A DNA stretch of 64,000 nucleotides from an uncultured bacterium. GTDB taxonomy: Bacteria; Verrucomicrobiota; Verrucomicrobiia; CAIQCK01. How positions within the stretch are numbered: position 1 is the first letter of the stretch; every line of letters begins with the position of its first letter. The notes under the pieces were generated by a model, which saw only the letters and a list, made by a program, of their open reading frames with translations, was not told the origin of the DNA and did not search any database. Position numbers and translations under genes: made by a program. The stretch lies in the NCBI GenBank assembly GCA_903870275.1, contig CAIQCK010000101.1:13141-77140 (forward strand), given 5' to 3'. This document shows, piece after piece, positions 31,307-64,000 of the stretch.

Positions 31307-33415
31307 ATGAAGGCACTTGCAATTATCCGACTCGGTTGCGCGTGTTTGGTTGGCGGTGCGATTGGAGCAGCGGCGGACGAGATTGTGTTGTTCGATGCCG
31401 CTACGACGCCGATGGCCGCGGTCGCGTCGCAGTCGGGCGGGAAGATCGAGTTGCGAGACGGGCTGCTGGAAGTCGAGACGAAGGGCGGGACGGGCTATCC
31501 GGGGATTCGTGTCAAGGGCGTGTGGGATTTGTCGAAGTGCAACCGGCTGACGCTGGAGCTGGCCCTTCGCGATCGCAAGGGCGAACTGCCGCTCACGATC
31601 CGGCTCGACAATCCGGATGCGAATCCCGGCAAATCAGAAGGCGTGTTTGTGGATCGCGTGAAGATCCGTGGCAAGAAGCCGGCGAGCTACGAAGTAGCGC
31701 TCCCGCCGCCGCTGCCCTACGGGCGCGAAATCAACAGCAAACTCACCGGCATGAAGCGCGGGCCGTTGGCGACGACGGGTGTGGCGGCCGATCTGGATGC
31801 GTCGAAGGTGGTCGGCGTGGCGGTCTATATCAACGAGCCGAAGCTGGACTGGCTCTGGAGTGTGAAGCGCATCGTCGCGCACACCGGGCCGTCGCCAGAC
31901 GTGGCGGCATGGATGCGGCTGCCGCCGGAAACGTTTTTCCCGTTCATTGACGTGTATGGCCAGTTCAAACACAAGGAGTGGCCCGGCAAGACGCACTCGG
32001 ACAACGACCTGAAAAAGGCACTGGAGACCGAGCGCGCCGACCTCGCCGCGCATTCCGGCCCCGACGGGTGGAACCCATACGGCGGTTGGGCCAAGGGGCC
32101 GCGGCAAAAAGCGACCGGCCGGTTCCGCGTCGAGAAGATCAACGGCAGGTGGTGGATGGTGGATCCCGAAGGCTGCCTCTGGTGGTCGCACGGGCCGGTG
32201 CGCGTCACCTCCTCGTCGGCGGTGACGCCGCTGGACGGGCGCGAGCTTTACTTCACCGATCTGCCCAAGCCGGACTCGCCGTTCGCGCTCTTCTATACGA
32301 CGCGCGACGCGCTGCTCTGGCCGTATTACGAGGCGCGCGGCATCCAGCGGACGTATGATTTTTCCTCGGCCAACGCCTACCGCAAGTATGGCGCGGACTG
32401 GCGCGCGCGCTACGCCGACATGGCGCACCAACGGCTGCGGAGCTGGGGCATGAACACCATCGCGAACAGTTCCGACAAGGGCATCTGCCTGCAGCGGCGC
32501 ACGCCCTACTGTGACCGCTTCGAGTTGAAATCGCCGGACATCGAGGGCGCGCATCTCGGCTGGTGGAAGTTCAAAGACCCGTTCCACCCCGAATTCCGCG
32601 CCAACTTCCGGCGGCAGCTCGCGCAGCGAAAAGAGGAACTCGATGACCCGTGGTGTTTCGGGTTTTTCGTGGACAATGAGATCAGTTGGGGCGGCGAGAC
32701 CGCGCTGGCGGACTGGACATTGCAATCGCCCGCCACCCAGCCGGCGAAGATCGAGATGATTCGCCGGCTCAAGGAGAAATACGCCGCCATCGCCCAACTC
32801 AACGCGGCATGGAAAACCAACTACACCGACTGGGACGCGTTGCTCCAATCGCAGCAGAAGCCACCGCCCGATGCGAAAGACGACTGCGCTGCATTCACCG
32901 CGGTCGTGACCGAGGCATACTTCAAGAACATCCGCGACGAATTCAAGGCTGTCGCTCCCAACACGCTCTATCTCGGTTGTCGCTTCGCCGGCTCGACCAA
33001 GGCCGCCGTCCAGATCGCGGCCAAATACTGCGACGTCATCAGCTACAACCTCTACCGGCACACGCTGGATGATTTCAAACTGCCGGAGGGCGTGGACAAG
33101 CCGGTTATGATTGGCGAGTTCCATTTCGGCGCGCTCGACCGCGGCATGTTTCATCCGAGCCTGATCGAGGTCGCCGACCAGGCCGCGCGCGGCAAAGCTT
33201 ACGCGACCTACATCGCTTCCGCGCTGCGCCACCCGAACATCGTCGGCGCGCACTGGCATCAATTCGGCGAGCAGCCGACCACCGGCCGCTTCGACGGTGA
33301 GAATCTTCAGAACGGCCTGCTCGATGTGTGCGACACGCCCTACCCCGAAACCATCGCCGGCATCCGCGACGTCGGCTATCGCCTTTACGAAATCCGCAAC
33401 GAAGGAGTGAGATAA
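31307..33415 (+). CDS. secreted glycoside hydrolase (N-terminal CBM-like beta-sandwich + TIM-barrel; GH42/GH50-like)
   Basis: Signal peptide. About 200-aa N-terminal beta-sandwich. TIM-barrel region with ..GMNTIANS.., ..GFFVDNEISW.., ..MIGEFHFG.. and ..HWHQFGEQPTTGR.. typical of clan GH-A hydrolases. Exact family unresolved. Confidence 0.6.
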   Translation: MKALAIIRLGCACLVGGAIGAAADEIVLFDAATTPMAAVASQSGGKIELRDGLLEVETKGGTGYPGIRVKGVWDLSKCNRLTLELALRDRKGELPLTIRLDNPDANPGKSEGVFVDRVKIRGKKPASYEVALPPPLPYGREINSKLTGMKRGPLATTGVAADLDASKVVGVAVYINEPKLDWLWSVKRIVAHTGPSPDVAAWMRLPPETFFPFIDVYGQFKHKEWPGKTHSDNDLKKALETERADLAAHSGPDGWNPYGGWAKGPRQKATGRFRVEKINGRWWMVDPEGCLWWSHGPVRVTSSSAVTPLDGRELYFTDLPKPDSPFALFYTTRDALLWPYYEARGIQRTYDFSSANAYRKYGADWRARYADMAHQRLRSWGMNTIANSSDKGICLQRRTPYCDRFELKSPDIEGAHLGWWKFKDPFHPEFRANFRRQLAQRKEELDDPWCFGFFVDNEISWGGETALADWTLQSPATQPAKIEMIRRLKEKYAAIAQLNAAWKTNYTDWDALLQSQQKPPPDAKDDCAAFTAVVTEAYFKNIRDEFKAVAPNTLYLGCRFAGSTKAAVQIAAKYCDVISYNLYRHTLDDFKLPEGVDKPVMIGEFHFGALDRGMFHPSLIEVADQAARGKAYATYIASALRHPNIVGAHWHQFGEQPTTGRFDGENLQNGLLDVCDTPYPETIAGIRDVGYRLYEIRNEGVR

Positions 33416-33417
33416 AC

Positions 33418-35331
33418 ATGAACCGCCGCGCAATCTCCACCCTGACGGCGGCGCTGCTGCTGGCCATTGGAGCTTTGGCACAGGAACCCAAACCGCCGGT
33501 CTTCGCCTATCGCTCGTTCTGGCCGGAGTTCGAGGCGATGAAGCAGTTCAAGGACGCGGGCGTGAACACCGTCTGCATCTTCGCCGCCAACACCTACAAC
33601 TCGCTCGGCCAGCCTTACTGCAAATACCCGCCCGTGTGGCGCTGGTTTCGAAAGTATGACTTCGCGTCGCTGGACAAACAATATGACGATGTCCTCGCGA
33701 TCAATCCGAAGGCGGATTTTCTCTGCATGATAGACCTGAACACGCCGATCTGGCTCAAGCACCAGATGGCGTTGCGCGGACAGCCGGATTGCGACAGCTT
33801 CACCATGCTGAGCTGTGCTTGCGCCAGCCGCGAATGGCGCAAAACAACCGGCGAGTATCTGGAGGCGGTGGTCAAGCACATGGAGGCGCGTTATGGCGAC
33901 CGCGTGAAAGCCTACGTGCTCGCCTGCGGCCAGACCGACGAGTGGATGGATTACAGCCGTGGCATGGCCGGCCGGGCAAAAACCCAGGCGTGGAAAACAT
34001 GGCTCAAAGACCACGGCAGGGCCGACGTGGCCGTGCCCACGCTGGAGCGACTGGATCACGCGTCATTCGAGGACTTGATTCGCGATCCGGCCACCGAGCG
34101 GGACGTGGTGGATTACGCGCAGTTCACCGGCGACATCGTTGCGGACACCGTGCTGGAGTTTGCGAAGAAGACCCGTTCGCTGATTCCAAGGCAACGACAG
34201 ATCGGAATGTTTTTCGGCTACATCCTGGAGTTGACCCGCACGCGTCTGGTTTGGGCAGGCCATCTGGAATACGAACGGCTTTACAGCTCGCCGGACATTG
34301 ATTTCTTCATCAGCCCGGGAACCTACAGCGATCGGCCGATGGGCGGCGGCAGCGGCTTCATGGTGCCGAACGCAACGCGGCTGCTGAATCATAAAGGCTT
34401 CCTCCACGAGATGGATCACCGCACGCCGACGTATAATGTCCACCTCGACGAGTTCGTCTCCATTGCGTGGATGGTGCCGTGGAAAAATCAGGCGGAAACC
34501 GACGCCGGCCTGAAGCGGGAGTTTGCCCTCGCGATCACCGCACAGAGTTCGCTGTGGTGTTTCGACATGTGGGGCGGGGTTTTTAAGACGCCGGAAACGA
34601 TGCAATGCGTCAAGCAAGCCAAGACGCTGTGGGATCGTTTCACCGCGCAGCCGCTCAAGACCCGCGCCGAGGTCGCGCTGGTGGTGGACCCGCAAAGCGC
34701 GCGCTACGTCAACGACCAGAACGCCACGGTGGCGCAGATCTACCAGAACACGCGCAACACGCTCAATCGCTTGGGCGCGCCGTTCGAGGTTTTCTCCTTC
34801 AACGACCTGTCGCGCGCCGACCTGTCTCAATACCGGCTGTTTATTTTTCCCGGACTCTTCGAGCTGACGCCCGAGAAAATGGAGGTGCTCAAAAATCACG
34901 TTCTCAAAAACAATCGCACGGTGATGTTCCTCTACGCGCCCGGCATCTGCGACGGCAAGACCCTCGATCCGGCGCGGGTGAAAGCGCTGACCGGCACCGC
35001 GTTCAAGACGCCGGGCCTCAGCACGGTGCCGCGCGATGGTTGGAAGGCCGTTTATGCCGCCGGCTACGCGGACTTGACGGCGGAGACCTTGAGAAAAGCG
35101 GCTGTCGAAGCGGGCGTCACGATCTACTGTCAGGACGCCGTTCCGGTTTACGCCAACGAACGCCTCGTGGCGATTCACACGGCGCAAGGAGGTGAGAAGA
35201 CCATCACGCTGCCGGTTGACTGCCGGCAGGTTCGCGAGCTTTACACCGGCCGTCTTGTGCCCGTGACAGCACGCCAGTTCCGTTACTCATTTGAGACGCC
35301 GGACACGGCACTGTTCGAACTGATTTGGTAA
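33418..35331 (+). CDS. secreted glycoside-hydrolase-like protein (TIM-barrel + beta-galactosidase-trimerisation-like domain)
   Basis: Starts 3 nt after the previous stop with a GGAG RBS. Signal peptide MNRRAISTLTAALLLAIGALA. Resembles the GH42-like/DUF4832-type two-domain architecture. The ORF extends back to 33328. Confidence 0.5.
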   Translation: MNRRAISTLTAALLLAIGALAQEPKPPVFAYRSFWPEFEAMKQFKDAGVNTVCIFAANTYNSLGQPYCKYPPVWRWFRKYDFASLDKQYDDVLAINPKADFLCMIDLNTPIWLKHQMALRGQPDCDSFTMLSCACASREWRKTTGEYLEAVVKHMEARYGDRVKAYVLACGQTDEWMDYSRGMAGRAKTQAWKTWLKDHGRADVAVPTLERLDHASFEDLIRDPATERDVVDYAQFTGDIVADTVLEFAKKTRSLIPRQRQIGMFFGYILELTRTRLVWAGHLEYERLYSSPDIDFFISPGTYSDRPMGGGSGFMVPNATRLLNHKGFLHEMDHRTPTYNVHLDEFVSIAWMVPWKNQAETDAGLKREFALAITAQSSLWCFDMWGGVFKTPETMQCVKQAKTLWDRFTAQPLKTRAEVALVVDPQSARYVNDQNATVAQIYQNTRNTLNRLGAPFEVFSFNDLSRADLSQYRLFIFPGLFELTPEKMEVLKNHVLKNNRTVMFLYAPGICDGKTLDPARVKALTGTAFKTPGLSTVPRDGWKAVYAAGYADLTAETLRKAAVEAGVTIYCQDAVPVYANERLVAIHTAQGGEKTITLPVDCRQVRELYTGRLVPVTARQFRYSFETPDTALFELIW

Positions 35332-35384
35332 AGTGGGGCGGGCATTTCAACCAGATCGTGCCCTCAAGACCGATACCGCACTCG

Positions 35385-35442
35385 CAAGAACGCGATTCTT
35401 GTTTATTTACGACGGCCTTCGGGCGGCGCATAATGCCGCCCG
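35385..35442 (+). promoter_or_regulatory. shared upstream motif copy 2 (perfect palindrome CAAGAA-cgcga-TTCTTG) plus 5'-UTR hairpin
   Basis: caagaacgcgattcttg (35385-35401), tttatttac, then GGGCGGC-gcataat-GCCGCCC hairpin (35420-35442). ATG of the ceramidase-like gene is at 35467. Confidence 0.45.
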
Positions 35443-35466
35443 TGCAGTCTGAAGAACATTGAAGCC

Positions 35467-36876
35467 ATGTCACGGAGCACGATCATGCCCACACTCGCCA
35501 CTCGCCGAAGTTTTCTTTGCCACCTCGTCATCGTCGCATCGAGCTTGTCGCTCGCCCACGGCGCAGCCGCCGGCGACGGCGGACTGAAGCTCGCCACGTT
35601 CGACGTGGACGCCACGCCGCCGGTTGGCTCGATGCTAGCTTACGATCCCGTCATCCGCGTGGACGAACTGACGCTGCGATGCCGTGGTGTCGTCTTGATC
35701 GGCGCGGGCGAGCCGATTGTGTTGTGCGCGGTGGATTGGATCGGCATCGCCAACGAAGCCCACGACGCTTTCTGCGAGGCGCTGGCCAGGGCCGCGCACA
35801 CGACGCCGCAGCGCGTCGCCGTCCACGTGGTGCACCAGCACGACGCGCCGGGATGCGATTTCACCGCGGAAGCTCTGTTGAAAAAAGCGGGTGTAAGCGA
35901 CCTCGGCCGCTACGAAAGCGCCTTTGCGCGCAAAGTGATCAGCCGCGCCGCGGAAGCGGTGCGGGTTTCCCTCACGAAGGCGCAGCCCGTCACCTACTGC
36001 GGCTGGGGCGAAGCCAACGTGAAGGAAGTGGCGTCGAACCGCCGCATCCCCGGCCCGGACGGCCGCATCCGCGCCACGCGCTGGACCACTTGCAAGGACC
36101 CGAAATTGCGCGCGGAGCCGGAAGGCGTGATTGACCCGCGTGTGTCGCTGCTGAGTTTTTGGAACGACGACGAACCGGTCGCCGTCCTGAGCTACTACGC
36201 CTGTCATCCGCAAAGCTACTACCGCATGGGCATTCCCAGCCCGGATTTTCCCGGCATCGCGCGTTTCTTCCGCCAACAAGACGTGCCGGAGGCGTTGCAC
36301 GTACATTTCAACGGCGCCGGGGGAAATATCACCGCGGGCAAATACAACGACGGCGCGCGGGAGAACCGCGTGGCGCTCGCGCTGCGGCTGGCCAACGGCA
36401 TGAGGCGCGCGTGGGAAGCGACGCGGGTCTTTCCCATCAACGCAACGAACATCCAGTGGCGCGTGGAGCCTGCGGCCCTGCCGCCTGCGGCTCATCTCGA
36501 CGAGGCAAAGCTGCGTGCCGACCTGACTCAGCAAAAGAATCCCAAGCTCGCCTTGGACGCCGCCGACCAGCTCGCGTGGCTGTTGCGTTGCCAGAGCGGG
36601 CACAAGATAGACATCGCGATGCTGGGCGTCGGCGACGTGCGAGTACTGCACATGCCAGGCGAGCTGTTCGTCGAATATCAACTTGCCGCCAAGCAGATGC
36701 GTCCCGATCTTCACGTCGCAATGGCCGCCTATGGCGAATACGGCCCCGGCTACATCGGCACGGCACGCGCCTACCCCGAAGGCGGCTACGAAACCAGCAA
36801 GCTGGCGTCCGGTGTCACGCCAGAGGTGGAGTCGGTATTGATGACCTCCATGCGGAAGCTGCTGGAGCCGCGATGA
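35467..36876 (+). CDS. neutral/alkaline ceramidase-like hydrolase (paralog 1), Tat/Sec-exported
   Basis: [24 protein letters not shown] leader. Ceramidase N-terminal-domain signature VHQHDAPG (GxHxHSGP-like) and overall similarity to 57589..59049. Confidence 0.55.
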
Positions 36877-36982
36877 TGCTTTGAATCGCGTGAGAAACTT
36901 TCCCTTGGAATCGCTTGTTTCAAAACAACGGGCCGGTAGAATCCCGCCGTTCACGTCTCTTCATCTACGAGCTTGAGAAACC

Positions 36983-38164: not shown

Positions 38165-38204
38165 ACAACCGCCCATCATCGAAATCATAACAAAGGAGTC
38201 CGCC

Positions 38205-39047
38205 ATGTCTCGCGCACCACATTTTTCCCGACGACGTTTCCTCCAGATCACCGGCGCGGCCCTGCCCGCGTCCGTCCTTGCCGCCCCGGCATCGGGCAAG
38301 CTGAAATCGCACAAGTATGAGGAACTTCGCCCGGAGGAATTCTACGCCGAACTCGAACGCACGCCCATCGCCTACTGGGGTTGCGGCGCGATGGAAGAGC
38401 ACGGTTTGCAGAACCCGCTCGGCGTGGACCCGCTCACCGCTTATGAAATTTGTCTGCGGGCCGTAAAAATCTCCGGCGGCATTGTCTTTCCGCTGGTGCC
38501 GTTTGCGCCGGCCTACATGCCGCCGTGCCTGACGCGCCGCGAATTGCGCGAGAAGTCCAAGGAACTGTTCCTGCCGAGCCTCTGGACCAGCGGCGAGCTT
38601 TGCAAACAACTCTACATCGAGCTGCTCGAATCGCTCGCCGACATCGGCTTCAAGTCCTGCATCGCCTTCAGCGGCCATGCGCCCGCGGACGTGCTGCTTC
38701 AGCAGATTGACAAGGAACTCGGCGGCAAGGTGGGCGCGATGCGATTCTGGGGCGGCGGCACCGTGAGCATCCTGCGCGATCATCTCAAGGATCTGGCGAA
38801 ACAATACCCGCTCGGCATGGGCCACGGCATGATGTGGGAAACGTCATTCATGATGGCGCTCAATCCGGAGTGCGTGGACCTGCCGCGGGCGAAACGCGTC
38901 AAGGACTATCCGCGGCCTTCGCAGCTCTCCAAACAACCCGACAAGAATCTTGACGATATCTCCAACGCCAACACCGAACTCGGCAACCGCGAATTCAACC
39001 TCGCCGCCGAGCGCGCCGCCAAGATCGCGCGCGAGATGCTCCAATAA
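38205..39047 (+). CDS. creatininase-family amidohydrolase-like protein, Tat signal
   Basis: Tat motif SRRRFLQITGAALPA. Creatininase-fold metal-site motif ..AYWGCGAMEEHG..PLGVD.. and ..FSGHAP... Confidence 0.6.
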   Translation: MSRAPHFSRRRFLQITGAALPASVLAAPASGKLKSHKYEELRPEEFYAELERTPIAYWGCGAMEEHGLQNPLGVDPLTAYEICLRAVKISGGIVFPLVPFAPAYMPPCLTRRELREKSKELFLPSLWTSGELCKQLYIELLESLADIGFKSCIAFSGHAPADVLLQQIDKELGGKVGAMRFWGGGTVSILRDHLKDLAKQYPLGMGHGMMWETSFMMALNPECVDLPRAKRVKDYPRPSQLSKQPDKNLDDISNANTELGNREFNLAAERAAKIAREMLQ

Positions 39048-39082: not shown

Positions 39083-41776
39083 ATGAAACCCGTCTTCCCC
39101 TTCTGTCTTGCCGCGCTGTTCGTGGCCGGCGTTGCAACCGCAACGGATTTTTACGTCGCGGCCACCGGCGACGACGCCAATCCCGGCACGAAGACGAAGC
39201 CGTTCGCGACGCTGGAACACGCGCGCGACGCCGTCCGGCAATCCAAGACCCAAAATCCAAAGTCCAAAATCGAAGTCTTTCTCCGCGGCGGAGTTTACCG
39301 CGTCGAAAAGACGATCGAGTTCACGCTGGAAGACTCAGGCTCCGAGGACGCGCCGATCACTTACGCGGCATACGGCAGCGAGCGGCCGGTCATTTCAGGC
39401 GGTCGGCAAATTACCGGCTGGCAGAAAGGCGACGGCAAGCTCTGGCAAACGGTCGTGCCGGACGTGAAGGAAGGCCGCTGGTATTTCAACCAGCTTTTCG
39501 TCAACGGACAGCGGCGCACACGAGCACGGACGCCCAACAAGGGCTTCCTCTACACCGAAGGCATCCTCGCGCCGTTCAATCGCGCGAAATGGTCCAGCGA
39601 CACGGTGGCAAAACACGGCTTTGTGTTTCGCGACGGCGACATCAAGCGCTGGCGTAATTTCAACGACGCCGTGGTCGTCGTTTATCACTCATGGACAACC
39701 TCGATTCACCTGATCACCGATCTTGATTCCGGGCAGCGAACAGTGCGGCTCGCGCCGTCGTCGCGATGGCCCATCGGTTACTGGTGGGAATACAACACGC
39801 GATATCACGTCGAAAATATTTTCGAGGCGCTCGACGAGCCGGGCGAATGGTATCTCGACCGCGCTACGGGCGTTTTGAGCTACTGGCCAATGCCCGGCGA
39901 GAACATGCGTCGCGCGGAAGTCGTCGCGCCGGTCGTGCGGCAGACGCTGGTCGCGTTCCAAGGCGCGGCGGCGAAGAAGCAATACGTTGAATACCTTCGC
40001 TTCGCCGGCCTGTCGTTCCAGCACACGGATTACCTGCTCGCGCCGGACATGCCGCCTGATGAGCAAGGGGCCACGGAGCGCTTGCCGCTGATCGCCGCCG
40101 AAGGGTTGCGCCACGCGGTCTTTGAAAACTGCGAGATCACCCACGCCGGTGAGAACGCCCTCTGGCTCGATAGTGGTTGCGCCAACAACGTCTTCCGCCG
40201 CTGCCACATTCACGACCTCGGCGGCAGCGCCATATTCATCGGCCCGAAGAAATGGCGCGATACGCCGGAAGAACGCGTCGAGCGCAACGTTGTGGACAAC
40301 TGTTTCATTCACGATGGCTCGCACATATTCCTCGGCAGTCAGGGCGTGTGGATCGGCCGCTCCTCATACAACGAGGTGACGCACAACGAGATTTCCGACT
40401 TCGCCCATCTCGGCATCTCCGTCGGTCACTCGTGGGGTTACGCGCCGAGCAGCGCGCACAACAACCGGATCGCTTTCAACCACGTCCACCACATCTGCAA
40501 CGGATTTTTCAGTGACGGCGGCGGCATTTATACGCTCGGCATTTCGCCGGGCACAGTGATCCTGAACAACGTCGTCCACGACGTGGTGCCGACACCGCAG
40601 ATGCCGGTCGGCGGTACCGGCATCTACCTCGACGAAGGCTCCAGCGACATCGTCGTCGAGAGCAACCTCGTCTATCGCGTGGGCGCGGGCGCGTTCAACC
40701 AGCACTACGGGAAGGAAAACCTCGTGCGGAACAACATCTTCGCTTTCGGCGGGCGCAATCCGATCACCAGCGGCCGGCCGGAGGACCATTTGTCCTTCAC
40801 GTTCGAGGGCAACATCGCCCTGTCCAGCGAAGGCCAGGCCACGGCGGACCATTTCAGCCCGCTCAAATCAAAAACCGCGTTCCGCCACAATCTCTACTGG
40901 GACACCTCGACCACGGAACCGCTTTTCTCGAGTGTGAGTTTCGCCGAGTGGCAGCGCACCGGCCGCGACCAGGACTCGCACATCGCCGACCCGCAGTTCT
41001 ACGACGCGACGCATGGCGATTTCCGGCTCAAGAAAACCTCGCCCGCGCTCGCTATGGGTTTCCAACCGATCGCAACGGACCTTGTGGGTCTCTACGGCGA
41101 CGTCGCATGGGTGAACGCACCCAAGCGAATCAAGCGGGCGCCACTTCCCGATCTTCCGCCGCTGCCACCCGCGCCACCGCCGAAACCGCTGGTTATGGAT
41201 TTTGAATCCGACGCCACCGGCAAACAACCGGCTATGCTCACATGCACGCCCGCCGACCGAACCGACGTGCTGCAAGTGACTGAGGAAACGGCCGCCAGCG
41301 GAACGAAGTGCCTTAAGTTCACCCACGCCGCCGGTTTGCAACACTCCTGGCAGCCGCACGTCTATTACAGTTCCACCCGCTACACGAACGGCCTCGTCCG
41401 GTTCTCTTGTGACATCCAAAACAGCGCCGCGCATCCCTCCGATTGCTATGTCGGCTTGCGCGACTGGGGCAATGGCGGCGGCTCATATCGCGAGGGCGCC
41501 AGCCTGCTGCTGAAAACTGATGGCACGCTTTGTGCCAACGGCAAGCCCATCGTCAAAGTCGGGCTTGGTCGCTGGGCACACCTTGAAATTCAAACCGGGA
41601 CCGCCGATTACCGTCTAGCGGTCACCATCGCCAGTGAAAAAGAGCAAGTCTTCGAGCATCTGCCCTACGCCAATCCGGAATACCGTCAATTTACCTGGTT
41701 CGGTTTCTCATCTATGGGCAAACCCGGCGTGATCTTTTACGTGGATAACATTCGCCTGGAGTTACTTCCCAAATGA
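39083..41776 (+). CDS. secreted right-handed parallel beta-helix protein (pectate-lyase fold; polysaccharide lyase/hydrolase-like) with C-terminal beta-sandwich domain
   Basis: Signal peptide. DFYVAATGDDANPGTKTKPFATLEHARDAV N-terminus typical of beta-helix (Pectate_lyase_3/Beta_helix) CAZymes. Many ..N.....N.. coil repeats. Pro-rich linker PLPDLPPLPPAPPPKP followed by about 190-aa beta-sandwich. Contains in-frame 7-nt repeats at 39244-39278. Confidence 0.7.
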   Translation: MKPVFPFCLAALFVAGVATATDFYVAATGDDANPGTKTKPFATLEHARDAVRQSKTQNPKSKIEVFLRGGVYRVEKTIEFTLEDSGSEDAPITYAAYGSERPVISGGRQITGWQKGDGKLWQTVVPDVKEGRWYFNQLFVNGQRRTRARTPNKGFLYTEGILAPFNRAKWSSDTVAKHGFVFRDGDIKRWRNFNDAVVVVYHSWTTSIHLITDLDSGQRTVRLAPSSRWPIGYWWEYNTRYHVENIFEALDEPGEWYLDRATGVLSYWPMPGENMRRAEVVAPVVRQTLVAFQGAAAKKQYVEYLRFAGLSFQHTDYLLAPDMPPDEQGATERLPLIAAEGLRHAVFENCEITHAGENALWLDSGCANNVFRRCHIHDLGGSAIFIGPKKWRDTPEERVERNVVDNCFIHDGSHIFLGSQGVWIGRSSYNEVTHNEISDFAHLGISVGHSWGYAPSSAHNNRIAFNHVHHICNGFFSDGGGIYTLGISPGTVILNNVVHDVVPTPQMPVGGTGIYLDEGSSDIVVESNLVYRVGAGAFNQHYGKENLVRNNIFAFGGRNPITSGRPEDHLSFTFEGNIALSSEGQATADHFSPLKSKTAFRHNLYWDTSTTEPLFSSVSFAEWQRTGRDQDSHIADPQFYDATHGDFRLKKTSPALAMGFQPIATDLVGLYGDVAWVNAPKRIKRAPLPDLPPLPPAPPPKPLVMDFESDATGKQPAMLTCTPADRTDVLQVTEETAASGTKCLKFTHAAGLQHSWQPHVYYSSTRYTNGLVRFSCDIQNSAAHPSDCYVGLRDWGNGGGSYREGASLLLKTDGTLCANGKPIVKVGLGRWAHLEIQTGTADYRLAVTIASEKEQVFEHLPYANPEYRQFTWFGFSSMGKPGVIFYVDNIRLELLPK
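39244..39278 (+). repeat. intragenic heptanucleotide tandem repeat (CAARRYC)x4-5
   Basis: caagacc caaaatc caaagtc caaaatc gaagtct, encoding ..SKTQNPKSKIEV.. about 55 codons into 39083..41776. Confidence 0.7.
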
Positions 41777-41805
41777 CACGGTTCAGCAAACACAAAGACT
41801 CGATT

Positions 41806-46644: not shown

Positions 46645-46964
46645 GTTATGGCTCCTCATGCGCGGCTCGCGGCTCCACGATTTCATCGGCGTGGCTCGAT
46701 GGGCAAAGTGTAGCCGCTTCGCGTGGCGGCACAAATCAATTTGTCGGCGCGCTCCGCGATGGCGGGATTGGGCCAAAGGCTCATGCGAACGGAAAGCGCT
46801 GGCAGGAATTTTTTCATGGCGCGCGGGCGGAGTGCGGTGGCACTCTGCCGGAAGCCAGAAAGAGATTGCACAGCCGATGGCCGGCAATGAATCCGTCAAG
46901 AGTCGTGAACCGCCCCCGATGGAGAATCACTGACCTGTATATTTTTCCAAGGTGTTGTGCAAAT

Positions 46965-57567: not shown

Positions 57568-57588
57568 ACATACACGAGAGACAACTCT

Positions 57589-59049
57589 ATGAAATCCCCT
57601 GCCCATCCCCACTCGGTTCTTGCCACTGTTTCAATCGCGCTGCTCTTGACCATCGCGTCCGGTTCCGCCGCGCCCACCCCAAAAACCCCGCCGCTACGCG
57701 CCGGCGCCGCCGCCGTGGACATCACGCCGAAACAATTCCCGCTCAACATGCCGGGCGGTTTCAGCGCAAATATGGCCGACGGCGCGAACGATCCACTCCA
57801 TGCCCGCGCGCTGGTGCTTGACGATGGTTCGACCACCCTCGCGATGGTCGTCGTGGACAATCTCGGCGTGCCCCCCGAAGCCGCCAATGATGCGAGAGCC
57901 CTCGCCTCCCAGCGCTGCGGCATCAAGCCGGAGAAAATCCTGATCTGCGCCACGCACACGCACTCTGCCCCCTACTGCAACGCAACCAACGGCCCCGCCC
58001 CGGCCGTGGCATACCGGAAACTCTTCGTCGAAGGCGTCGCCGAGTCCATCGTCCGCGCCCACGCCGCGCTTCGGCCTGCCGCGGTCGGCGCCGCCGCACG
58101 TCCGCTGCCGGATGAGGTTTTTAACCGCCGCTGGTTTCTCAAACCGGGCAAGATGCCGTTGAATCCCTTCGGCAAACTGGACCAGGCGAAAATGAATCCC
58201 GACAACAGTCCCGATGTGCTCGACCACCCCGCGGGCCCCACTGACCCCGACATCACCGTGCTTTCCGTCCAGGACCCGAAGCGCAAACAGATCGCCCTTT
58301 TTGCCAACTATTCGCTTCATTATGTTGGCGGTACACCGAAAGGCATGGTTTCCGCCGACTACTACGGCGAGTTTGCCCGATTGATGCCCTCGCGCCTTCC
58401 CGGCGATGGCAGGCTTGTTGCCATGATGTCCAACGGCACTTCAGGCGACATCAACAACATCCCGTTTGGCTCCAGCCGCCCGCCACGCGAGCCGTTCGAG
58501 CAAATTCGCATCGTGGCACAACAAGCGGCCGACACAGCTTGGACTGCATGGAAAAGCATCAGCTCGTATCAGTCCAGCCCGCGCCTCGGCATGGTGCAAC
58601 GCGAGGTCACGCTCAAGTATCGCCGCCCCACCGCCGAACAGGTCGCCGCGGCCCGGGCCGTGCTCGCCATCAAGGATAAAGCAGAGCGCGAGAAGCTGCC
58701 GCGTCTCGCCGAGAATTACGCCCGCAGCACCATCTCTGCCGCCGAGCGCAAAGAGGACACGATCACGGTCATTCTTCAAACCATCCGCGTCGGCGATCTG
58801 GCCGTGTGCGGCATTCCCTTCGAGGCTTTTTGCGAGATCGGCCTCGACCTGAAGAAGCGCAGTCCGTTCCCGCGCACAATGGTCATCGGCCTCGCCAATG
58901 GCCGGCACGGTTATCTGCCAACGCCCGAACAGCACAAGCTCGGCGGCTACGAAACCTGGATCGGCACATGCAGCGTCCAGGAAGACGCCTCCGTCATCCT
59001 CACCAACAACTTGCTCGAAATGCTCGCGGAACTGGCGAAGGCAGACTGA
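57589..59049 (+). CDS. neutral/alkaline ceramidase-like hydrolase (paralog 2), secreted
   Basis: Signal peptide. ..LICATHTHSAPY.. (ceramidase GxHxHSGP-type motif). Paralogous to 35467..36876. Confidence 0.55.
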   Translation: MKSPAHPHSVLATVSIALLLTIASGSAAPTPKTPPLRAGAAAVDITPKQFPLNMPGGFSANMADGANDPLHARALVLDDGSTTLAMVVVDNLGVPPEAANDARALASQRCGIKPEKILICATHTHSAPYCNATNGPAPAVAYRKLFVEGVAESIVRAHAALRPAAVGAAARPLPDEVFNRRWFLKPGKMPLNPFGKLDQAKMNPDNSPDVLDHPAGPTDPDITVLSVQDPKRKQIALFANYSLHYVGGTPKGMVSADYYGEFARLMPSRLPGDGRLVAMMSNGTSGDINNIPFGSSRPPREPFEQIRIVAQQAADTAWTAWKSISSYQSSPRLGMVQREVTLKYRRPTAEQVAAARAVLAIKDKAEREKLPRLAENYARSTISAAERKEDTITVILQTIRVGDLAVCGIPFEAFCEIGLDLKKRSPFPRTMVIGLANGRHGYLPTPEQHKLGGYETWIGTCSVQEDASVILTNNLLEMLAELAKAD

Positions 59050-59117
59050 ACCTGCGGCAGGATGTGACGACGATTCGCTTGCGGTTGTCCTTCTATCCGC
59101 GTCCCGAATAACGACGG

Positions 59118-60155
59118 TTATTTCTTCGCAGCGGCGGCGGCCTTGGCCTTGGCTTGATTCGCGGCAATAAATGCGTCCCAGTCTTTTTTGACCTCCGGAG
59201 CCTGGATAAAGAGATAATCGCGCTCGGTCTTTTGCGCCATCTGCACGTCCTTCATGAGTTGCTTATACTTCGCGTCTTCGCTGGCGAGCCGTTTCTTCTC
59301 CGCATCCGCCTTCGGACCTTTGCGATTGACGACCGGGAACGCCTTCGCGAGGGCTTCCATGGCGGTGCCGCGCACGTCCACCAGCGACTTGAATTTCTCG
59401 TCGGACTTCATCAGCCGGTCGCGGGCCTTTACCTCGGCCGCCATATATGCGTCCTGCGGATTGCCCGAGCGATCAATGGCGGGCCGCGCGGTCTGGCGCA
59501 CAAAGAGTTTGGCTTTCTCCGCCGGCCAGGATGGGCTGGGTGTGGCGCTCCAGAGCTTCACGTTGTCGAACTGCGCCGCCCCGATCACCGCGAATAAGAG
59601 ATCCGTCTTCTCCTTGTTGATGCCGGGGTGCGAGCCGCAGAGGAAGATTGTGTCGTCCACGCGGGCCAGCATCTCCTCGCCGTTGAGTTCCACGATCATC
59701 GTGTGCCAGATATCCGGAGCGAGCGTGGCGCCTGTTTCGTCGAGGATGGGCGAATAGCTGCGGGGGTCTTTGCGATCCGCGTTCTTATACATGACCAGCG
59801 AATTGGGCCGAATCTGGATGTAGCTGTTGTGGCCGCCCGCGTCGTTGAGACCGAAGTGGATCCGGGAATCGCCTTTGATCATGAAGGAAAACTGCGCCAC
59901 CCCCGTGATACAGGCGAACGGCGTTTTGATCACGGCGGCGTGATGATCCTCGGGGCGTTCGGCGCCGATAAGCGCGCCGTTTTCGATTGTCCAGCCGCCA
60001 ATGGCCACTTTCCACTTGTTGGTGTCGAGGCTGCCGCTGAACGACTCGTCAAGCAAACACGCGCCCCGTTGAACCATGAGCGGCTGCACATCCCCCGCCA
60101 AGGCTGCCGCCGTGCCAACCAACAGTGAAACCGAAAGCGTAATCATGTTGTTCAT
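59118..60155 (-). CDS. secreted ConA-like lectin/glucanase-domain (DUF1080-like) protein with Lys/Ala-rich coiled-coil tail
   Basis: Signal peptide. About 200-aa beta-sandwich (..W....GGW..ENGAL.., ..DNVKLW..). C-terminal about 120 aa is K/A/E-rich and helical. Confidence 0.5.
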   Translation of the reverse strand: MNNMITLSVSLLVGTAAALAGDVQPLMVQRGACLLDESFSGSLDTNKWKVAIGGWTIENGALIGAERPEDHHAAVIKTPFACITGVAQFSFMIKGDSRIHFGLNDAGGHNSYIQIRPNSLVMYKNADRKDPRSYSPILDETGATLAPDIWHTMIVELNGEEMLARVDDTIFLCGSHPGINKEKTDLLFAVIGAAQFDNVKLWSATPSPSWPAEKAKLFVRQTARPAIDRSGNPQDAYMAAEVKARDRLMKSDEKFKSLVDVRGTAMEALAKAFPVVNRKGPKADAEKKRLASEDAKYKQLMKDVQMAQKTERDYLFIQAPEVKKDWDAFIAANQAKAKAAAAAKK

Positions 60156-60318
60156 GGCGTGTAGTCCTAACGCAATTGGGAATTCCCGTAAACAACTGTT
60201 TCTGGGGTCGCGGTGTCTGGCTCGTTGGTCGGGGTTCCGGTGTCATCGTTGGCCAAGCCGCGGGCAAGCATTTTCTGGTGGCGCGCGGACGGCGGGCGGT
60301 GGCACGCTGCGGCTTGCC

Positions 60319-61884
60319 ATGAAGAAGCTTTGCATCCTCTCTCTCGCCGTTATCTTGCTGGCGCCGCTGGTCGCGATGGCTGAGGAAGCCACGATCCGGG
60401 GCGAACCGATCATCAAGGATGATTTTGAGCGATGTACGCCCAAGGACAAGATCCTGAACGACGAGAACCGGTCCGGTTTCTGGAACCTCCGCTACAAGAC
60501 CTGGGGCGACAACAACCTGCTTTACGGCAACCCGGCCGCGCCGGACATCGCTTACGATCCGGCGCTGAAAGGTTTCTATGATGTTGAAGTGGAATCCCGC
60601 GCCACCGACCGCGCGGGCGGCTTCGGTTTGAGATTGTCATCGGAGGCGGAGTTTACTGTTCTCCATGTGCCCAACGAAGGCGCGACCCCACAAAAGCACT
60701 TCAACGTCTGGCTGCCGTTCCGGAAAAACGTCAGGCTGGATAACGAGAAACTCATCATCCGTTACACCGGCAAAGCCGCCCACATTGATGCGTTCAAGTT
60801 CATCCCCATCGGCCGATTCACCAAATTCCGGCCGCTGGCCGCAAACGAGCCGGGTCCTTCCACCGGGGTGATCTGCAAAGAGATGGGCCGATACATTGGA
60901 TGGCCGACTATCGCCAGAACTTCCAAAGGCGAGTTGATCGTGACCTTCTCCGGGGATCGCGACGCGCATGTCTGCCCCTGGGGAAAAACCCAGATGGTCC
61001 GCTCCGCCGACAACGGTAGAACGTGGTCCGATGTTGTCACCATCAACAACACGCCGCTGGACGACCGGGACACCGGCGTCATTGAAACAAGCAAGGGCAC
61101 CCTGCTTGTCAGTTGGTTCACGTCGCTCTACTTCGAGCGGCCGGGCATCCTGCGGGATTCGTGGCGGCAGCACGCGGCCAAGATCGGCCCGGAAACCCGC
61201 AAGCAATGGCTCGGCACCTGGGTGCGCCGCTCCGAAGACAACGGCAAGACGTGGGGCGTTCCGACAAGGACCTCCGGCTCCGCCCCGCACGGCCCGATTC
61301 CGTTGAAGGACGGCCGGTTGATTTATGTCGGCACGGGTGACGGCCCCGGCCCCTCCGATCGCGTCGTCGTGGAGGAATCGAAAGACGACGGCGTCACGTG
61401 GCAGCAAATCGCCAAGGTGTCGTCGCCGCCTTCCTTTTACGCGGATGAACCGCACGTCGTAGAGTGTAGCAACGGCCGGCTCGTGGCTATGTTTCGGAAT
61501 GAACACCCGGATGAATCCCAGCGGTTCCTCGGCCAATCGGAAAGCGAGGACGGCGGCCGGACTTGGAGCATGATTCACCGTATCGAGATATGGGGCTATC
61601 CGCCGCATCTCACCCGGTTGAACGACGGACGGTTGCTGATGGTTTACGGACACCGCCGCCAGCCCTTTGGCCAGCGCGCCTGCCTTTCCCGCGACGACGG
61701 CCGGACGTGGGACCTTAAGAACGGGATTGCGCTCGTGGACAATGCGCCGGACGGCGATCTCGGTTATCCGGCTTCCGCGCAACTCGGCGACGGAACCATC
61801 CTGACCATTTACTATCAGAAGGATCAGCCCGCTGAGAAACCGTGCCTGATGGGCACGCACTGGCGCCTGCCTGCAGCGAGATAA
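60319..61884 (+). CDS. BNR-repeat exo-alpha-sialidase-like glycoside hydrolase (GH33-like), secreted
   Basis: Signal peptide MKKLCILSLAVILLAPLVAMA. Five Asp-box motifs (SADNGRTW, SEDNGKTW, SKDDGVTW, SEDGGRTW, SRDDGRTW) preceded by an N-terminal beta-sandwich. The ORF extends back to 60076. Confidence 0.75.
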   Translation: MKKLCILSLAVILLAPLVAMAEEATIRGEPIIKDDFERCTPKDKILNDENRSGFWNLRYKTWGDNNLLYGNPAAPDIAYDPALKGFYDVEVESRATDRAGGFGLRLSSEAEFTVLHVPNEGATPQKHFNVWLPFRKNVRLDNEKLIIRYTGKAAHIDAFKFIPIGRFTKFRPLAANEPGPSTGVICKEMGRYIGWPTIARTSKGELIVTFSGDRDAHVCPWGKTQMVRSADNGRTWSDVVTINNTPLDDRDTGVIETSKGTLLVSWFTSLYFERPGILRDSWRQHAAKIGPETRKQWLGTWVRRSEDNGKTWGVPTRTSGSAPHGPIPLKDGRLIYVGTGDGPGPSDRVVVEESKDDGVTWQQIAKVSSPPSFYADEPHVVECSNGRLVAMFRNEHPDESQRFLGQSESEDGGRTWSMIHRIEIWGYPPHLTRLNDGRLLMVYGHRRQPFGQRACLSRDDGRTWDLKNGIALVDNAPDGDLGYPASAQLGDGTILTIYYQKDQPAEKPCLMGTHWRLPAAR

Positions 61885-61905
61885 GAATCGGGAACAGACC
61901 TTGCG

Positions 61906-62910
61906 ATGAAACCAGTCCGTCTCACCCTCATTGCTCTATTGCTGGCCCCGCTGGCCGCGCTTCATGCGGCTGAGCCTGACTGGGTGTTGGAAACCAAGGC
62001 GGCGGGTTGGCAGGCGCGCGACTCTCAGGGCGAGTTTGCGTTCCGCGACCGGCTCTGGATCATGGGCGGATGGTTCAACTCCAATGAGGCCCCGCCGCGT
62101 GATGTGTGGTCTTCGGCGGACGGCCGCGTGTGGAGTCTCGTCACCCAATGTGCGCCGTGGATTCATAGCGATCTGCCGATGGCCATCGTCTTCAAAAACC
62201 GCATGTGGATGATGGGCGGATGGTATAACGGCCGATTGCCAGGACACTCGGCCAGCCACCAGGTCTGGTGGTCCACCGACGGCGCGAACTGGCAGCAGGC
62301 CACGGCCGCCGCCGGTTGGTCGCCGCGCATCGCAGCCGCCATCGTGGAGTTTCGCGGCCGCATGTGGATACTCGGCGGCACGGAGAACTATTACTTTGGC
62401 GATGAGAAGAGCCTGAAGAACGACGTGTGGTCATCCGCTGACGGCAAAGAGTGGAAACAGGAAATCGCACAGGCCCCCTGGTCGCCGAGGGCTTATCATC
62501 AGGCGGTGGTGTTGAACGATAAGATATATGTCCTTGGCGGCGGCAACTATGTCCCCGCATACCACGCGAAGAACGACGTGTGGTCGTCCAGCGATGGCGT
62601 GCATTGGGTTTGCGAAACGGAATCGGCCCCGTGGCAGCCGCGCCTGTGGTTCTCCGCCGCAGTGTATCGCGGCCACATGTGGGTGCTCGGCGGCTGGTGC
62701 AAGGAAAAGGACAACTACGGCGACGTTTGGCACTCGGCCGACGGCAAAACGTGGCAGCGATTGGAAACGAAAACATGCTGGAAGGCGCGGCATGAGCACT
62801 CGGTCTTTGTTTTTCAGGACAAACTCTGGATCGCCGGCGGTCACGCGCGTCCCCTTTCCAGCGAGGTCTGGTCACTATATCTGCCGCCAAATTTCTGCGC
62901 ACAACCATGA
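61906..62910 (+). CDS. secreted Kelch-repeat beta-propeller protein
   Basis: Signal peptide. Six repeats of ..R.W.MGGW....DVWSS.DG..W.. (Kelch/galactose-oxidase-like blades). Confidence 0.65.
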   Translation: MKPVRLTLIALLLAPLAALHAAEPDWVLETKAAGWQARDSQGEFAFRDRLWIMGGWFNSNEAPPRDVWSSADGRVWSLVTQCAPWIHSDLPMAIVFKNRMWMMGGWYNGRLPGHSASHQVWWSTDGANWQQATAAAGWSPRIAAAIVEFRGRMWILGGTENYYFGDEKSLKNDVWSSADGKEWKQEIAQAPWSPRAYHQAVVLNDKIYVLGGGNYVPAYHAKNDVWSSSDGVHWVCETESAPWQPRLWFSAAVYRGHMWVLGGWCKEKDNYGDVWHSADGKTWQRLETKTCWKARHEHSVFVFQDKLWIAGGHARPLSSEVWSLYLPPNFCAQP

Positions 62911-64000
62911 AACAAATCATCTCCCTGACTCTCGCCGCGCTGCTGCTGGCTCTGGCGGTCGCCGCCAGTCCAACCCAGGCGCAAACACCCAGGAAACTTC
63001 TTCCGGCCAATTGGGACGCCAAACAAGCCGCGGACCGCGTGATGGACGGCCTCGTCAACATCTCCGCTCCGCAGGTCAAAGGCGCGCATGATGCGGGCAT
63101 CGTCATCGTGAACGACAAGGCCTATGTCGTCGCGATTTGCAACGACGTGCAGCCGGGCGAAAACCCCGAGTGGGCCTTCTGCTACGTGAGCATGTCCGTG
63201 GTGAACGTGAAGACGCGGACGGTGGAGAAGTTCATCCCGGTTGCCAAATCGGAGCAAGTGTTCGAGAACGAAACGCTGCCCTCCGGTGCGTGCTTTGTGC
63301 CGCGCATCTTCGGAATAAACGCGCGGACGCTGCGCTGCTTCTTCGCCAGCGAAGCGCCGAAACTCCGCCAGGCGCAGGTGTGGTTCACCGACTTCAATCT
63401 CCAGAGCGGCGCTTTTGAGAACCGCATTCATCGCGCGAAGCTCAAGATGGCGAATGGCGTCTTCGACATGCAGCCGAAACCGTTCTACGACGATGCCGCG
63501 GCGCATGGCTTTACCCATGAGCCGAAGGATTACGGCTTGTATCTCATTGACGCCTTCAAGGCCTTCGATGGAAAAACCTACGCGGTCCTCAACAACTTCG
63601 CCGCCGGCCAGGACGCGCTCGCGCTCTTGAATCCGGACATGGACACCTTTGAAGTGCTTGGCCACTACAACGAGCCGCACGGTTTGAAGCTTACCGAGTC
63701 GGCTGTAAACCGTCTGCCGGACAGCACGTGGATGGCGATCTGCCGGCAGGAAGGCGGCAACAAGAACTACACCTTCACCACGAGCAAAGACGGCAGGACT
63801 TGGACGCCCGGCGAGCACCGCGACTTCGTGCCGAACGGCGGCAGCTCGAAGCCGACCTTTGACCGCTTCAAGGGCGTCTATTATCTCGGCTGGCAGGAGA
63901 GCACGCGCATCGCCGGCGTCGGGCGTTCCGTGTTCAACATCGAAGTCTCCGCCGACGGCATAAACTGGGAGCGCAAGTATCGCTTCGAATCCGCGAAAAC
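62907..64000 (+). CDS. secreted BNR/sialidase-like protein (partial, runs off window end)
   Basis: ATG overlaps the previous stop (ATGA). Signal peptide MKQIISLTLAALLLALAVAA. Asp-box-like SKDGRTWT and SADGINWE. The frame stays open to 64000. Absent from the supplied ORF track because it lacks a stop within the window. Confidence 0.6.
   Translation, partial: MKQIISLTLAALLLALAVAASPTQAQTPRKLLPANWDAKQAADRVMDGLVNISAPQVKGAHDAGIVIVNDKAYVVAICNDVQPGENPEWAFCYVSMSVVNVKTRTVEKFIPVAKSEQVFENETLPSGACFVPRIFGINARTLRCFFASEAPKLRQAQVWFTDFNLQSGAFENRIHRAKLKMANGVFDMQPKPFYDDAAAHGFTHEPKDYGLYLIDAFKAFDGKTYAVLNNFAAGQDALALLNPDMDTFEVLGHYNEPHGLKLTESAVNRLPDSTWMAICRQEGGNKNYTFTTSKDGRTWTPGEHRDFVPNGGSSKPTFDRFKGVYYLGWQESTRIAGVGRSVFNIEVSADGINWERKYRFESAK

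Follow-up and report, generated by a model that had tools for sequence, protein, structure and literature searches.

A probable verrucomicrobial glycan-degradation cluster without SusCD that may also handle N-acyl groups

Verrucomicrobiota lack SusCD and carry instead units resembling polysaccharide utilisation loci (PULs), in which glycosidases, sulfatases and carboxylesterases are grouped and the glycoside hydrolase (GH) families GH141, GH31 and GH36 are included (PMC8857213). In a different setting, fitness data led to the proposal that the membrane protein NagX uses acetyl-CoA from the cytoplasm to N-acetylate glucosamine in the periplasm, in the manner of HGSNAT (PMC9007349). Here, we analyse a 64,000-nucleotide stretch of DNA from an uncultured bacterium (contig CAIQCK010000101.1; the whole stretch is called the window, and positions are given in its coordinates), in which 20 genes, G1 to G20, occupy positions 31307-64000 and combine carbohydrate-active enzymes (CAZymes) with neutral-ceramidase-fold proteins, a NagX/HGSNAT-like membrane protein and a creatininase-fold protein. 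We regard the whole proposal, a verrucomicrobial glycan-degrading cluster without SusCD that includes N-acyl handling, as evenly balanced. Its general part, an ordinary verrucomicrobial glycan-degradation cluster, is highly probable, and the part in which N-acyl groups are edited is tentative and rather doubtful.

The genes are densely arranged. Eighteen of the 20 lie on the plus strand, as judged from the open reading frame (ORF) listing and a third-position GC (GC3) test, and same-strand neighbours are mostly separated by -4 to 135 bp, with two wider gaps of 220 and 329 bp. Almost all products begin with a Sec-type or a twin-arginine (Tat) signal, the latter in G3, G5, G12 and G13; these signals were called by eye from the N-termini, not with a signal-peptide predictor. 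Families were assigned by Pfam, NCBIfam and PDB sequence searches of the ORFs in the window, and at least 12 of the 20 genes were found to be of GH, carbohydrate esterase (CE) or BNR type. Because the GH coding density of freshwater Verrucomicrobia metagenome-assembled genomes (MAGs) is 0.4-4.9% (PMC5615132), this clustering is far above chance expectation.

An earlier note on this DNA, made from the letters alone, had described a dense run of secreted CAZyme-type genes for the breakdown of a glycan or glycoconjugate. The searches bear out this description and most of the gene list that went with it, namely two ceramidase-like genes, one HGSNAT-like, one creatininase-like, one GH31, one GH36 and one Cys-rich gene (G13), as well as two beta-helices (G6 and G7), one of them fused to an esterase, for which the family is now GH141. 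The list had missed the GH50-like G1, and its four esterases reduce to three esterase domains within the window (the C-terminus of G7, G9 and G10); a fourth lies just past the window end, so that the full cluster holds at least four. As the note had stated, no sulfatase, transporter or regulator was detected among the ORFs of 31307-64000, and neither a SusC-like TonB-dependent transporter nor a SusD-like lipoprotein gave a Pfam or NCBIfam match in this interval or in the next 11 kb. The note had taken the architecture to be atypical. The absence of SusCD is, however, a property of the phylum, in which PUL-like clusters without it are the described norm (PMC8857213), and the architecture is therefore not atypical.

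The cluster extends beyond the window. On the 168.5-kb lake-metagenome scaffold BUCK21-1_SAMEA6872795_METAG-scaffold_32 (ENA ERZ18629311), which encodes an identical G16, it runs for at least 11 kb past position 64000; the label of this scaffold would point to the data set of Buck et al. on stratified freshwater lakes. There, G20 is followed by a 174-aa membrane protein, a third ceramidase-like protein (G22, 501 aa) and the BD-FAE esterase G23, and further downstream by an 889-aa protein of no assigned family and two beta-helix proteins, each about 797 aa long, of which one bears a faint GH141 signature. In all, the cluster covers 43 kb or more, beginning at position 31307 and reaching past 75000. 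Its best homologues are labelled Verrucomicrobia, Lentisphaerae, Kiritimatiellae and Planctomycetes, and the host is a member of the Planctomycetes-Verrucomicrobia-Chlamydiae (PVC) superphylum, probably of Verrucomicrobiota.

Judged by their sequences, the unusual parts of the cluster would fall into three families: the ceramidase-shaped amidases, the exported creatininase-type amidase with its membrane acetyltransferase, and the cysteine-rich G13. The three ceramidase-like paralogues G3, G16 and G22 share 22-26% identity (22% over 427 residues between G3 and G16). A single-sequence PDB search with G16 returned no match, and a profile was required. Aligned to 4WGK and 2ZWS, the family profile places THTHSAP on THTHSGP, slHyvG on aiHpvS, iPfEtf on iPgEft and GYlpt/GGYEt on HYitt/RYEa, and the motifs THTHSAP, sLHYVG, IPFE, GYLPT and GGYET thus correspond to the His, His, Glu, Tyr and Tyr that bind zinc or act in catalysis in the human and Pseudomonas enzymes. 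Residues H123, H125, R180/181, H244, E412 and Y442 are invariant in G3, G16, G22 and other relatives, and the second Tyr is replaced by Phe in G22. An AlphaFold2 model of G16 (pLDDT 68, pTM 0.73, with active-site loops of low confidence) matched in Foldseek only the neutral ceramidases 2ZWS, 2ZXC and 4WGK (E 3e-19 to 5e-17, TM 0.60, prob 1.0) at 17-18% identity. On the other side, G3 stays under the Ceramidase_alk gathering score of Pfam (21 bits vs 32), the NCBIfam ceramidase_neut equivalog reaches 31 bits against a cut-off of 1200, and no match to the C-terminal Ig-like domain was found, the proteins ending at 469-501 aa directly after the catalytic domain. The family has neither a characterised member nor a solved structure. 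Taking fold model and conserved residues together, G3, G16 and G22 are probably active zinc hydrolases of the ceramidase fold, not demonstrable ceramidases.

Could the cluster nevertheless act on lipids? In that case its glycosidases would trim the head group of a glycosphingolipid or other glycolipid, and true ceramidases would cut the N-acyl bond of the ceramide. The retained catalytic fold with every zinc and catalytic residue would agree with such a role, as would the GH36 gene and the GH123-type genes found at 8141-10411 of the window and beside related genes in two other contigs (L172 and L091), the founding member of GH123 being an enzyme that acts on glycosphingolipids. We nevertheless consider glycolipid breakdown very improbable: the distance to real ceramidases in identity, domain content and equivalog score is large, each locus holds three or four paralogues, the BNR protein is devoid of sialidase motifs, and no lipase, sphingomyelinase or fatty-acid genes lie nearby. 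The fusion partners of the family are not lipid-related either. Many homologues of about 40% identity are fusions of 700-2000 aa (examples occur among the G16 homologues P0364, P0376, P0379, P0403, P0372 and P0424), joined to the dehydrogenase-type PVC module of DUF7133 propeller, HEAT repeats and cytochrome c, to DUF1080, to the lectin-like Laminin_G_3 or to an esterase domain.

Because of these partners and of its gene neighbours, circumstantial evidence places the ceramidase-like family in periplasmic carbohydrate, not lipid, metabolism. In P0372 the ceramidase-like domain is fused to DUF1080, which repeats the pairing of G16 with the weakly DUF1080-like G17 in the window, and in locus L019 a 37% identical G17 homologue adjoins a G16 orthologue. 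A 45% identical homologue of G2 lies close to a G16 orthologue in L052, and ceramidase-like genes of other genomes also occur near GH109, GH123 and GH36. Our literature search for ceramidase homologues in PULs, Verrucomicrobia or Planctomycetes found nothing relevant.

The second unusual element is the pair formed by G4 and G5. G4 matches the NCBIfam NagX model NF046061 over its full length (1.6e-63, 215 bits; equivalog cut-off 480) and Pfam DUF5009 with 26.7 bits against a cut-off of 25. Its His63 sits in a Q-x-x-H-x-x-W-x-G motif and is the same in all four homologues compared (33-47% identity); it may be the counterpart of the acetyl-carrying histidines of related proteins, His72 of Shewana3_3111 and His297 of HGSNAT (PMC9007349). 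G5 scores 90.1 bits with Pfam Creatininase, far over the cut-off of 31.3, and its residues E64, H66, D75, H158, H207 and E212, identical in all of 16 homologues, fall on the metal-binding and catalytic positions of creatininase in the alignment. We take the corresponding residues of the Pseudomonas putida enzyme to be Glu34, His36, Asp45, His120, His178 and Glu183. G5 remains distant from the true creatininase equivalog TIGR04448 (33 bits vs 235) and from the MftE equivalog TIGR03964 (15 bits vs 172).

Is this pair found elsewhere? We inspected the contexts of five G5 homologues in addition to the window. In L175, a NagX-like gene (83% identity) stands directly upstream of the G5 homologue (70%) between entirely different flanks, and in L090, a Kiritimatiellae MAG, the two genes are adjacent in reversed order, at 43% and 53% identity for the NagX-like and creatininase members. 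The homologues in L089 and L176 lie among BNR, GFO_IDH_MocA and G2-like genes. In the region 6874-8783 of L091, an Armatimonadota contig, a signal-less G5 homologue has as neighbours a cytoplasmic N-acetyltransferase of the aminoglycoside type (Antibiotic_NAT), two genes of GH123 and an SSF sugar symporter, an arrangement that, by its sequences, reads as the cytoplasmic counterpart of the periplasmic G5-NagX pairing. The pairing of G4 and G5 is real but facultative, and we found no description of a NagX-like protein paired with a creatininase-fold amidase. The view that the ceramidase-like and creatininase-like genes serve no housekeeping function, on which the earlier note depended, holds, as relatives of both recur in carbohydrate loci of other PVC and of Armatimonadota genomes.

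That two structurally unrelated kinds of metal amidohydrolase accompany a transmembrane N-acetyltransferase suggests that amines are first stripped of their N-acyl groups and then acetylated anew. We propose that the esterases (the C-terminus of G7, G9, G10 and G23) would first remove O-acetyl groups, and that the polymer would then be cut by G1, G2, G6, G7, the two downstream beta-helix proteins, G12, G14, G15 and the BNR propellers. In a third step, the ceramidase-fold zinc amidohydrolases G3, G16 and G22 and the Tat-exported G5 would remove N-acyl groups in the periplasm, and in a fourth, G4 would re-N-acetylate the bared amine with cytoplasmic acetyl-CoA, after which ordinary N-acetylhexosamine (HexNAc) enzymes and uptake could proceed. 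What the analysis shows is the gene content, the export signals, the folds, the intact catalytic residues and the recurrence both of the G4-G5 pair and of ceramidase-like genes in glycan loci. We infer the substrate, the order of the steps, the specificities of the amidases and the co-expression of the genes. In the lysosome, heparan sulfate is handled successively by sulfamidase, HGSNAT and alpha-N-acetylglucosaminidase, and the editing route would be, by analogy, a bacterial counterpart of this logic of unmasking, acetylation by HGSNAT and hydrolysis. A further-reaching possibility is that G3, G16, G22 and G5 represent new periplasmic carbohydrate de-N-acylase families and form with G4 an N-acyl editing route widespread in the PVC superphylum. 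Outside the cytoplasm, amino sugars would then lose unusual N-acyl groups such as formyl, glycolyl, lactyl or hydroxybutyryl, and G4 would restore an acetyl group from across the membrane. We consider this unlikely.

Several observations weigh against the proposal as a whole. The cluster itself holds neither a glycosidase specific for HexNAc nor genes for amino-sugar catabolism, transport or regulation, and nagA, nagK and nagP were found neither in the window nor in the 11 kb that follow it. Among characterised proteins, G14 and G15 come closest to alpha-gluco/xylosidases and alpha-galactosidases, not to alpha-HexNAc-ases. The amidase families include no assayed enzyme, and a carbohydrate substrate is something we infer for them from sequence and context. 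In 80 metagenomic loci with a NagX-like gene, a creatininase-like neighbour was seen just once, and so was a ceramidase-like one; the regular association that had been expected is not borne out, the link is not obligatory, and no other neighbour family was strongly recurrent in these loci. A scan for sigma-70 promoters and terminators gave no more hits than shuffled sequence and no operon boundaries, and the two opposite-strand genes and two gaps of more than 200 bp mean that the cluster consists of several transcription units. Finally, the neighbourhood of G16 orthologues is variable across 82 loci. A conserved operon around G16 was ruled out by tblastn of all locus proteins against these loci, with the exception of one close relative, the Verrucomicrobia MAG locus L007, which shares G3, G11, G13, G16, an extra paralogue, G18, G21, G22 and G23 at 65-89% identity, in a rearranged module that also holds a sulfatase. 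The frequent neighbours of G16 orthologues are abundant PVC families (DUF1501, sulfatases, PSCyt proteins). Ceramidase-like paralogues (about 12 loci), BD-FAE-type esterases, sulfatases, BNR proteins (5 loci), NagX-like genes (3 loci) and GH141 (2-3 loci) recur without being obligatory.

The single coherent system that the earlier note had envisaged is thus not upheld, since synteny is kept in L007 only and the parts occur separately elsewhere. The same findings are what one would expect of a composite CAZyme island, in which independent small operons for different substrates have been juxtaposed by chance. There would then be no one substrate or pathway, and a general scavenging of amino sugars would fall to the amidase and NagX genes. 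The strand switches at G8 and G17, with the 220-329 bp gaps, divide the locus into at least four units, the G4-G5 pair stands alone in other contexts, and an IS630 transposase abuts the left edge. We see such an island as possible, though not as the reading to be favoured: within blocks the packing is very tight, with overlapping stop and start codons, and GC content is even across the region. Moreover, a similar set of genes comes together again around homologues of G13 in three unrelated contigs (L172, L173 and L174). GFO_IDH_MocA oxidoreductases lie directly upstream of the G13 homologue in two of the three, ceramidase-like genes are present in two of the three, and GH109, GH123, GH36, GHL10, DUF1080, AXE1 esterases and a NagX-like gene occur as well; in L173, a 29% identical homologue of G12 lies close to that of G13. 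These contexts echo much of the gene guild of the window.

A role closer to the cell itself must also be weighed, namely the remodelling or recycling of the bacterium's own envelope polymers or exopolysaccharide (EPS), for example an EPS that has lost part of its N-acetyl groups, or amino sugars from peptidoglycan. Hydrolysis of cyclic amides is a known activity of creatininase-fold enzymes and would fit such a role. The G16 family is large and conserved, with more than 8000 scored homologues that are typically 70-80% identical across phyla (73% for the Humisphaera borealis orthologue, but 49% for that of Kolteria novifilia) and relatives in at least 592 species-representative genomes, a pattern that resembles a core role more than that of a niche CAZyme; an exhaustive search gave 14,125 clusters at 50% identity with E <=1e-3, of which 744 had E <=1e-30. 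In addition, NagX is distantly related to an N-acetylmuramic acid (MurNAc) transporter (PMC9007349). Against this, neither the locus nor the DNA beside it contains genes for glycosyltransferases, polymer export or cell-wall synthesis, the locus consists mainly of exo- and endo-glycosidase families and esterases of the kind used to acquire nutrients, and we judge envelope recycling to be very improbable.

Returning to glycan degradation for nutrition, which substrate is attacked? The earlier note had counted three sialidase-like proteins and proposed a sialylated substrate. G18 is a solid BNR_2 protein with five S-x-D-x-G-x-T-W Asp-boxes, as in a six-bladed propeller; the assignment is weak for G20, the full-length product of which (from L001) reaches BNR_2 at E 1e-4, under the cut-off, and very weak for G11, with faint Pfam matches to a BT_1020-like propeller (E 0.045) and an endosialidase propeller (E 0.19). 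G11 has a 76% identical homologue in the syntenic locus L007. No FRIP motif ([FY]R[ILV]P) is present in G18, G11 or G20. The similarity of G18 to NanA-type sialidases is confined to about 50 residues (195-245), and its best PDB relative is the uncharacterised Dfer_1899 (5HX0, 2e-19), so that G18 was rejected as a true sialidase of GH33. The mutarotase family NANM matches G19 with 32.8 bits, under the cut-off of 45. Given the missing FRIP motif and short sialidase match of G18 and the sub-threshold NanM score of G19, a sialylated substrate is not supported.

The glycosidases and esterases were assigned as follows. Residues 312-696 of G1 match the beta-agarases 5Z6P, 4BQ2 and 6XJ9 (E 2.8e-80 to 2e-72) in the PDB search, with only a weak GH42 match in Pfam. 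To our knowledge, beta-agarase is the only activity described for GH50; in an apparently freshwater host, a GH50-like enzyme may have a different specificity or act on an agar-like freshwater galactan. G2 had no match in Pfam, NCBIfam or PDB, and in L176 a homologue with 44% identity shows weak similarity to Glyco_hydro_42M. G6 is recognised by Pfam Beta_helix (64.6 bits) and GH141_M (35.8 bits) and resembles the structures 9RX2 (2.8e-58) and BT_1002 (5MQP, 2.2e-43). The following ORF, G7, overlaps it by 4 bp; it also matches Beta_helix and can be called only GH141-like because its GH141_M score of 22.8 bits is under the cut-off of 27, and its C-terminus is a BD-FAE domain in Pfam (5.7e-21) and PaeX/AxeA1-like in NCBIfam (1e-61). 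The closest structures to G14 are 6JR6 (6e-54) and YicI (4e-42), and G15 matches the alpha-galactosidase 3MI6 (8e-19). In G8, weak Pfam hints to AGA-YXIM_GBD (E 0.018) and to the GH127 catalytic domain (E 0.097) suggest a carbohydrate-binding-like N-terminal domain and an alpha/alpha-toroid-like domain. For the esterases, the length of 292 aa of G9 is also that of the scaffold gene call, and G10 matches NF050058 at 1.4e-39, under the cut-off. The substrate, as the earlier note had said, cannot be read from the sequence. On the strength of at least four esterase domains together with the GH50-like, GH141, GH31, GH36, GHL10 and propeller enzymes, it would most likely be a heteropolysaccharide or glycoconjugate with many O-acetyl groups, attacked in the periplasm or outside the cell; it would also be rich in galactose and L-sugars. 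All genes of the cluster that lie in the window are listed in Table 1.

Table 1. Genes of the cluster at 31307-64000 of the window, with predicted products and the evidence for each call.
Gene	Product	Position	Strand	Evidence
G1	GH50-like (beta/alpha)8 glycosidase with extra N-terminal domain, 702 aa, signal peptide	31307..33415	+	PDB search; GC3 0.81
G2	unclassified putative glycosidase, GH42-like layout, 637 aa, signal peptide	33418..35331	+	L176 homologue
G3	neutral-ceramidase-fold paralogue 1, 469 aa, twin-arginine-like signal (RRSFL)	35467..36876	+	Ceramidase_alk 21 bits, under cut-off
G4	polytopic membrane NagX/HGSNAT-like acetyltransferase, 393 aa	36983..38164	+	NCBIfam NF046061, Pfam DUF5009
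G5	creatininase-fold metal amidohydrolase, 280 aa, Tat signal (SRRRFLQ)	38205..39047	+	Pfam Creatininase 2e-25, 90.1 bits
G6	GH141 beta-helix glycosidase, 897 aa, signal peptide	39083..41776	+	Pfam and PDB
G7	GH141-like beta-helix with C-terminal BD-FAE-type acetyl esterase, 1035 aa, signal peptide	41773..44880	+	Pfam, NCBIfam
G8	no assigned family, about 564 aa, signal peptide	44965..46659	-	GC3 0.80; weak Pfam hints
G9	esterase D / CE1-like esterase, 292 aa, signal peptide	46965..47843	+	Pfam Esterase 6e-13
G10	PHB-depolymerase-family esterase, 307 aa, signal peptide	47896..48819	+	Esterase_PHB 5e-8
G11	possible beta-propeller, 357 aa, signal peptide	49040..50113	+	faint Pfam matches
G12	GHL10 (glycosyl-hydrolase-like 10) TIM-barrel, 554 aa, Tat signal	50135..51799	+	Pfam GHL10 29.4 bits
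G13	internally duplicated DUF1284, 15 Cys, 362 aa, Tat signal	51878..52966	+	
G14	GH31 alpha-glycosidase, 794 aa, signal peptide	53025..55409	+	all four GH31 Pfam domains
G15	divergent GH36, 709 aa	55438..57567	+	Melibiase 4e-21, GH36C
G16	neutral-ceramidase-fold paralogue 2, 486 aa, signal peptide	57589..59049	+	Ceramidase_alk 47.7 bits
G17	weakly DUF1080 (3-keto-disaccharide-hydrolase)-like, Lys/Ala-rich tail, 345 aa, signal peptide	59118..60155	-	3keto-disac_hyd E 0.0034, under cut-off
G18	N-terminal domain and six-bladed BNR propeller, 521 aa, signal peptide	60319..61884	+	BNR_2 90 bits
G19	Kelch beta-propeller, 334 aa, signal peptide	61906..62910	+	Kelch families 1e-16 to 3e-27
G20	weak BNR_2-like propeller, 396 aa in full, signal peptide, end about 97 bp past the window	62907..64000	+	GC3 0.78

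No riboswitch or other RNA was detected in the locus by Rfam. Exactly at the left edge of the cluster lies an IS630-family transposase gene (DDE_3 and HTH_Tnp_1; 29604-31157, minus strand) with a GC3 of 0.58, below that of its neighbours; no terminal inverted repeats are evident around it. This element parts the CAZyme cluster from a run at 17304-29173 of DUF1080 (148 bits), a TPR protein, an SMP-30/gluconolactonase, two GFO_IDH_MocA oxidoreductases and an 814-aa HEAT-repeat protein, which are typical PVC periplasmic sugar-oxidation genes. A second sugar-related cluster at 22-10411 encodes an HpcH/HpaI aldolase, a short-chain dehydrogenase, a Kelch protein that is faintly NanM-like, an MFS transporter and a GH123-like protein, and contains a putative 1010-aa ORF (5209-8241, minus strand) that matches no family. 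It could be the source of the uptake and catabolic steps that are absent from the main locus. Between the two runs lie a bactofilin gene (11097-11951, plus strand) and three minus-strand tRNA calls, for Leu (11208-11291), Lys (15332-15408) and Tyr (17136-17220). The tRNA-Leu called by ARAGORN sits within the bactofilin ORF, was not reported by Rfam and may be spurious.

Planctomycetota, Verrucomicrobiota and related bacteria play a major part in breaking down complex glycans in lakes, soils and oceans, and much of their enzyme inventory is without assigned function. If the ceramidase-fold proteins and the NagX-creatininase pair do act on the N-acyl groups of amino sugars, they would supply a missing chemical step in models of the recycling of recalcitrant decorated polysaccharides and new enzyme families for glycan analysis; if not, the locus is one more ordinary verrucomicrobial CAZyme cluster. 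What gives it value is that three large uncharacterised families meet in it; the type of locus does not.

With the PUL-like clusters described in Verrucomicrobiota (marine bloom MAGs in PMC8857213, freshwater MAGs in PMC5615132) the cluster shares the phylum and lifestyle and the co-localisation of glycosidases, carboxylesterases and unassigned proteins without SusCD. Sulfatases and fucosidases or rhamnosidases are usually abundant in the published clusters, and transporters are often among their genes, whereas the present one contains neither a sulfatase nor a transporter in a span of 43 kb or more and adds three ceramidase-fold amidases, the NagX-creatininase pair and a GH50-like enzyme. Compared with neutral ceramidase (Pseudomonas aeruginosa 2ZWS and human ASAH2 4WGK; PF04734), G16 has the same fold of the catalytic domain, the zinc-binding His/His/Glu/Tyr and the second catalytic His and Tyr, and differs, like its paralogues, in its low identity, in ending before the Ig-like domain, in the number of paralogues per locus and in its carbohydrate-gene context. 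The rhamnogalacturonan-II (RG-II) PULs of Bacteroides thetaiotaomicron offer a further parallel in GH141, a faint GH127-like toroid, BNR-type propellers and esterases directed at a highly decorated glycan, and BT_1002 is the closest named structure to G6. No SusCD, GH137-140, GH78, GH106 or PL1 was detected here, however, nor GH142/143 above threshold, and an assignment as RG-II PUL was rejected because the GH127 and BT_1020-like matches are non-significant. The NagX glucosamine route (PMC9007349) is alike in that a homologue of a transmembrane acetyl-CoA-dependent N-acetyltransferase stands beside hydrolases that might expose or use an amino-sugar amine; G4, in contrast, is under the equivalog cut-off, lacks nearby nagA, nagK and nagP and has a creatininase-fold amidase as its partner, with which the unmasking chemistry is hypothetical. 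Lastly, G5 fits the creatininase/formamide-hydrolase family (PF02633; P. putida 1J2T) in its Pfam score and in its preserved metal ligands and catalytic His, and it departs from that family in being exported to the periplasm by the Tat route and in being paired with a membrane acetyltransferase in glycan loci.

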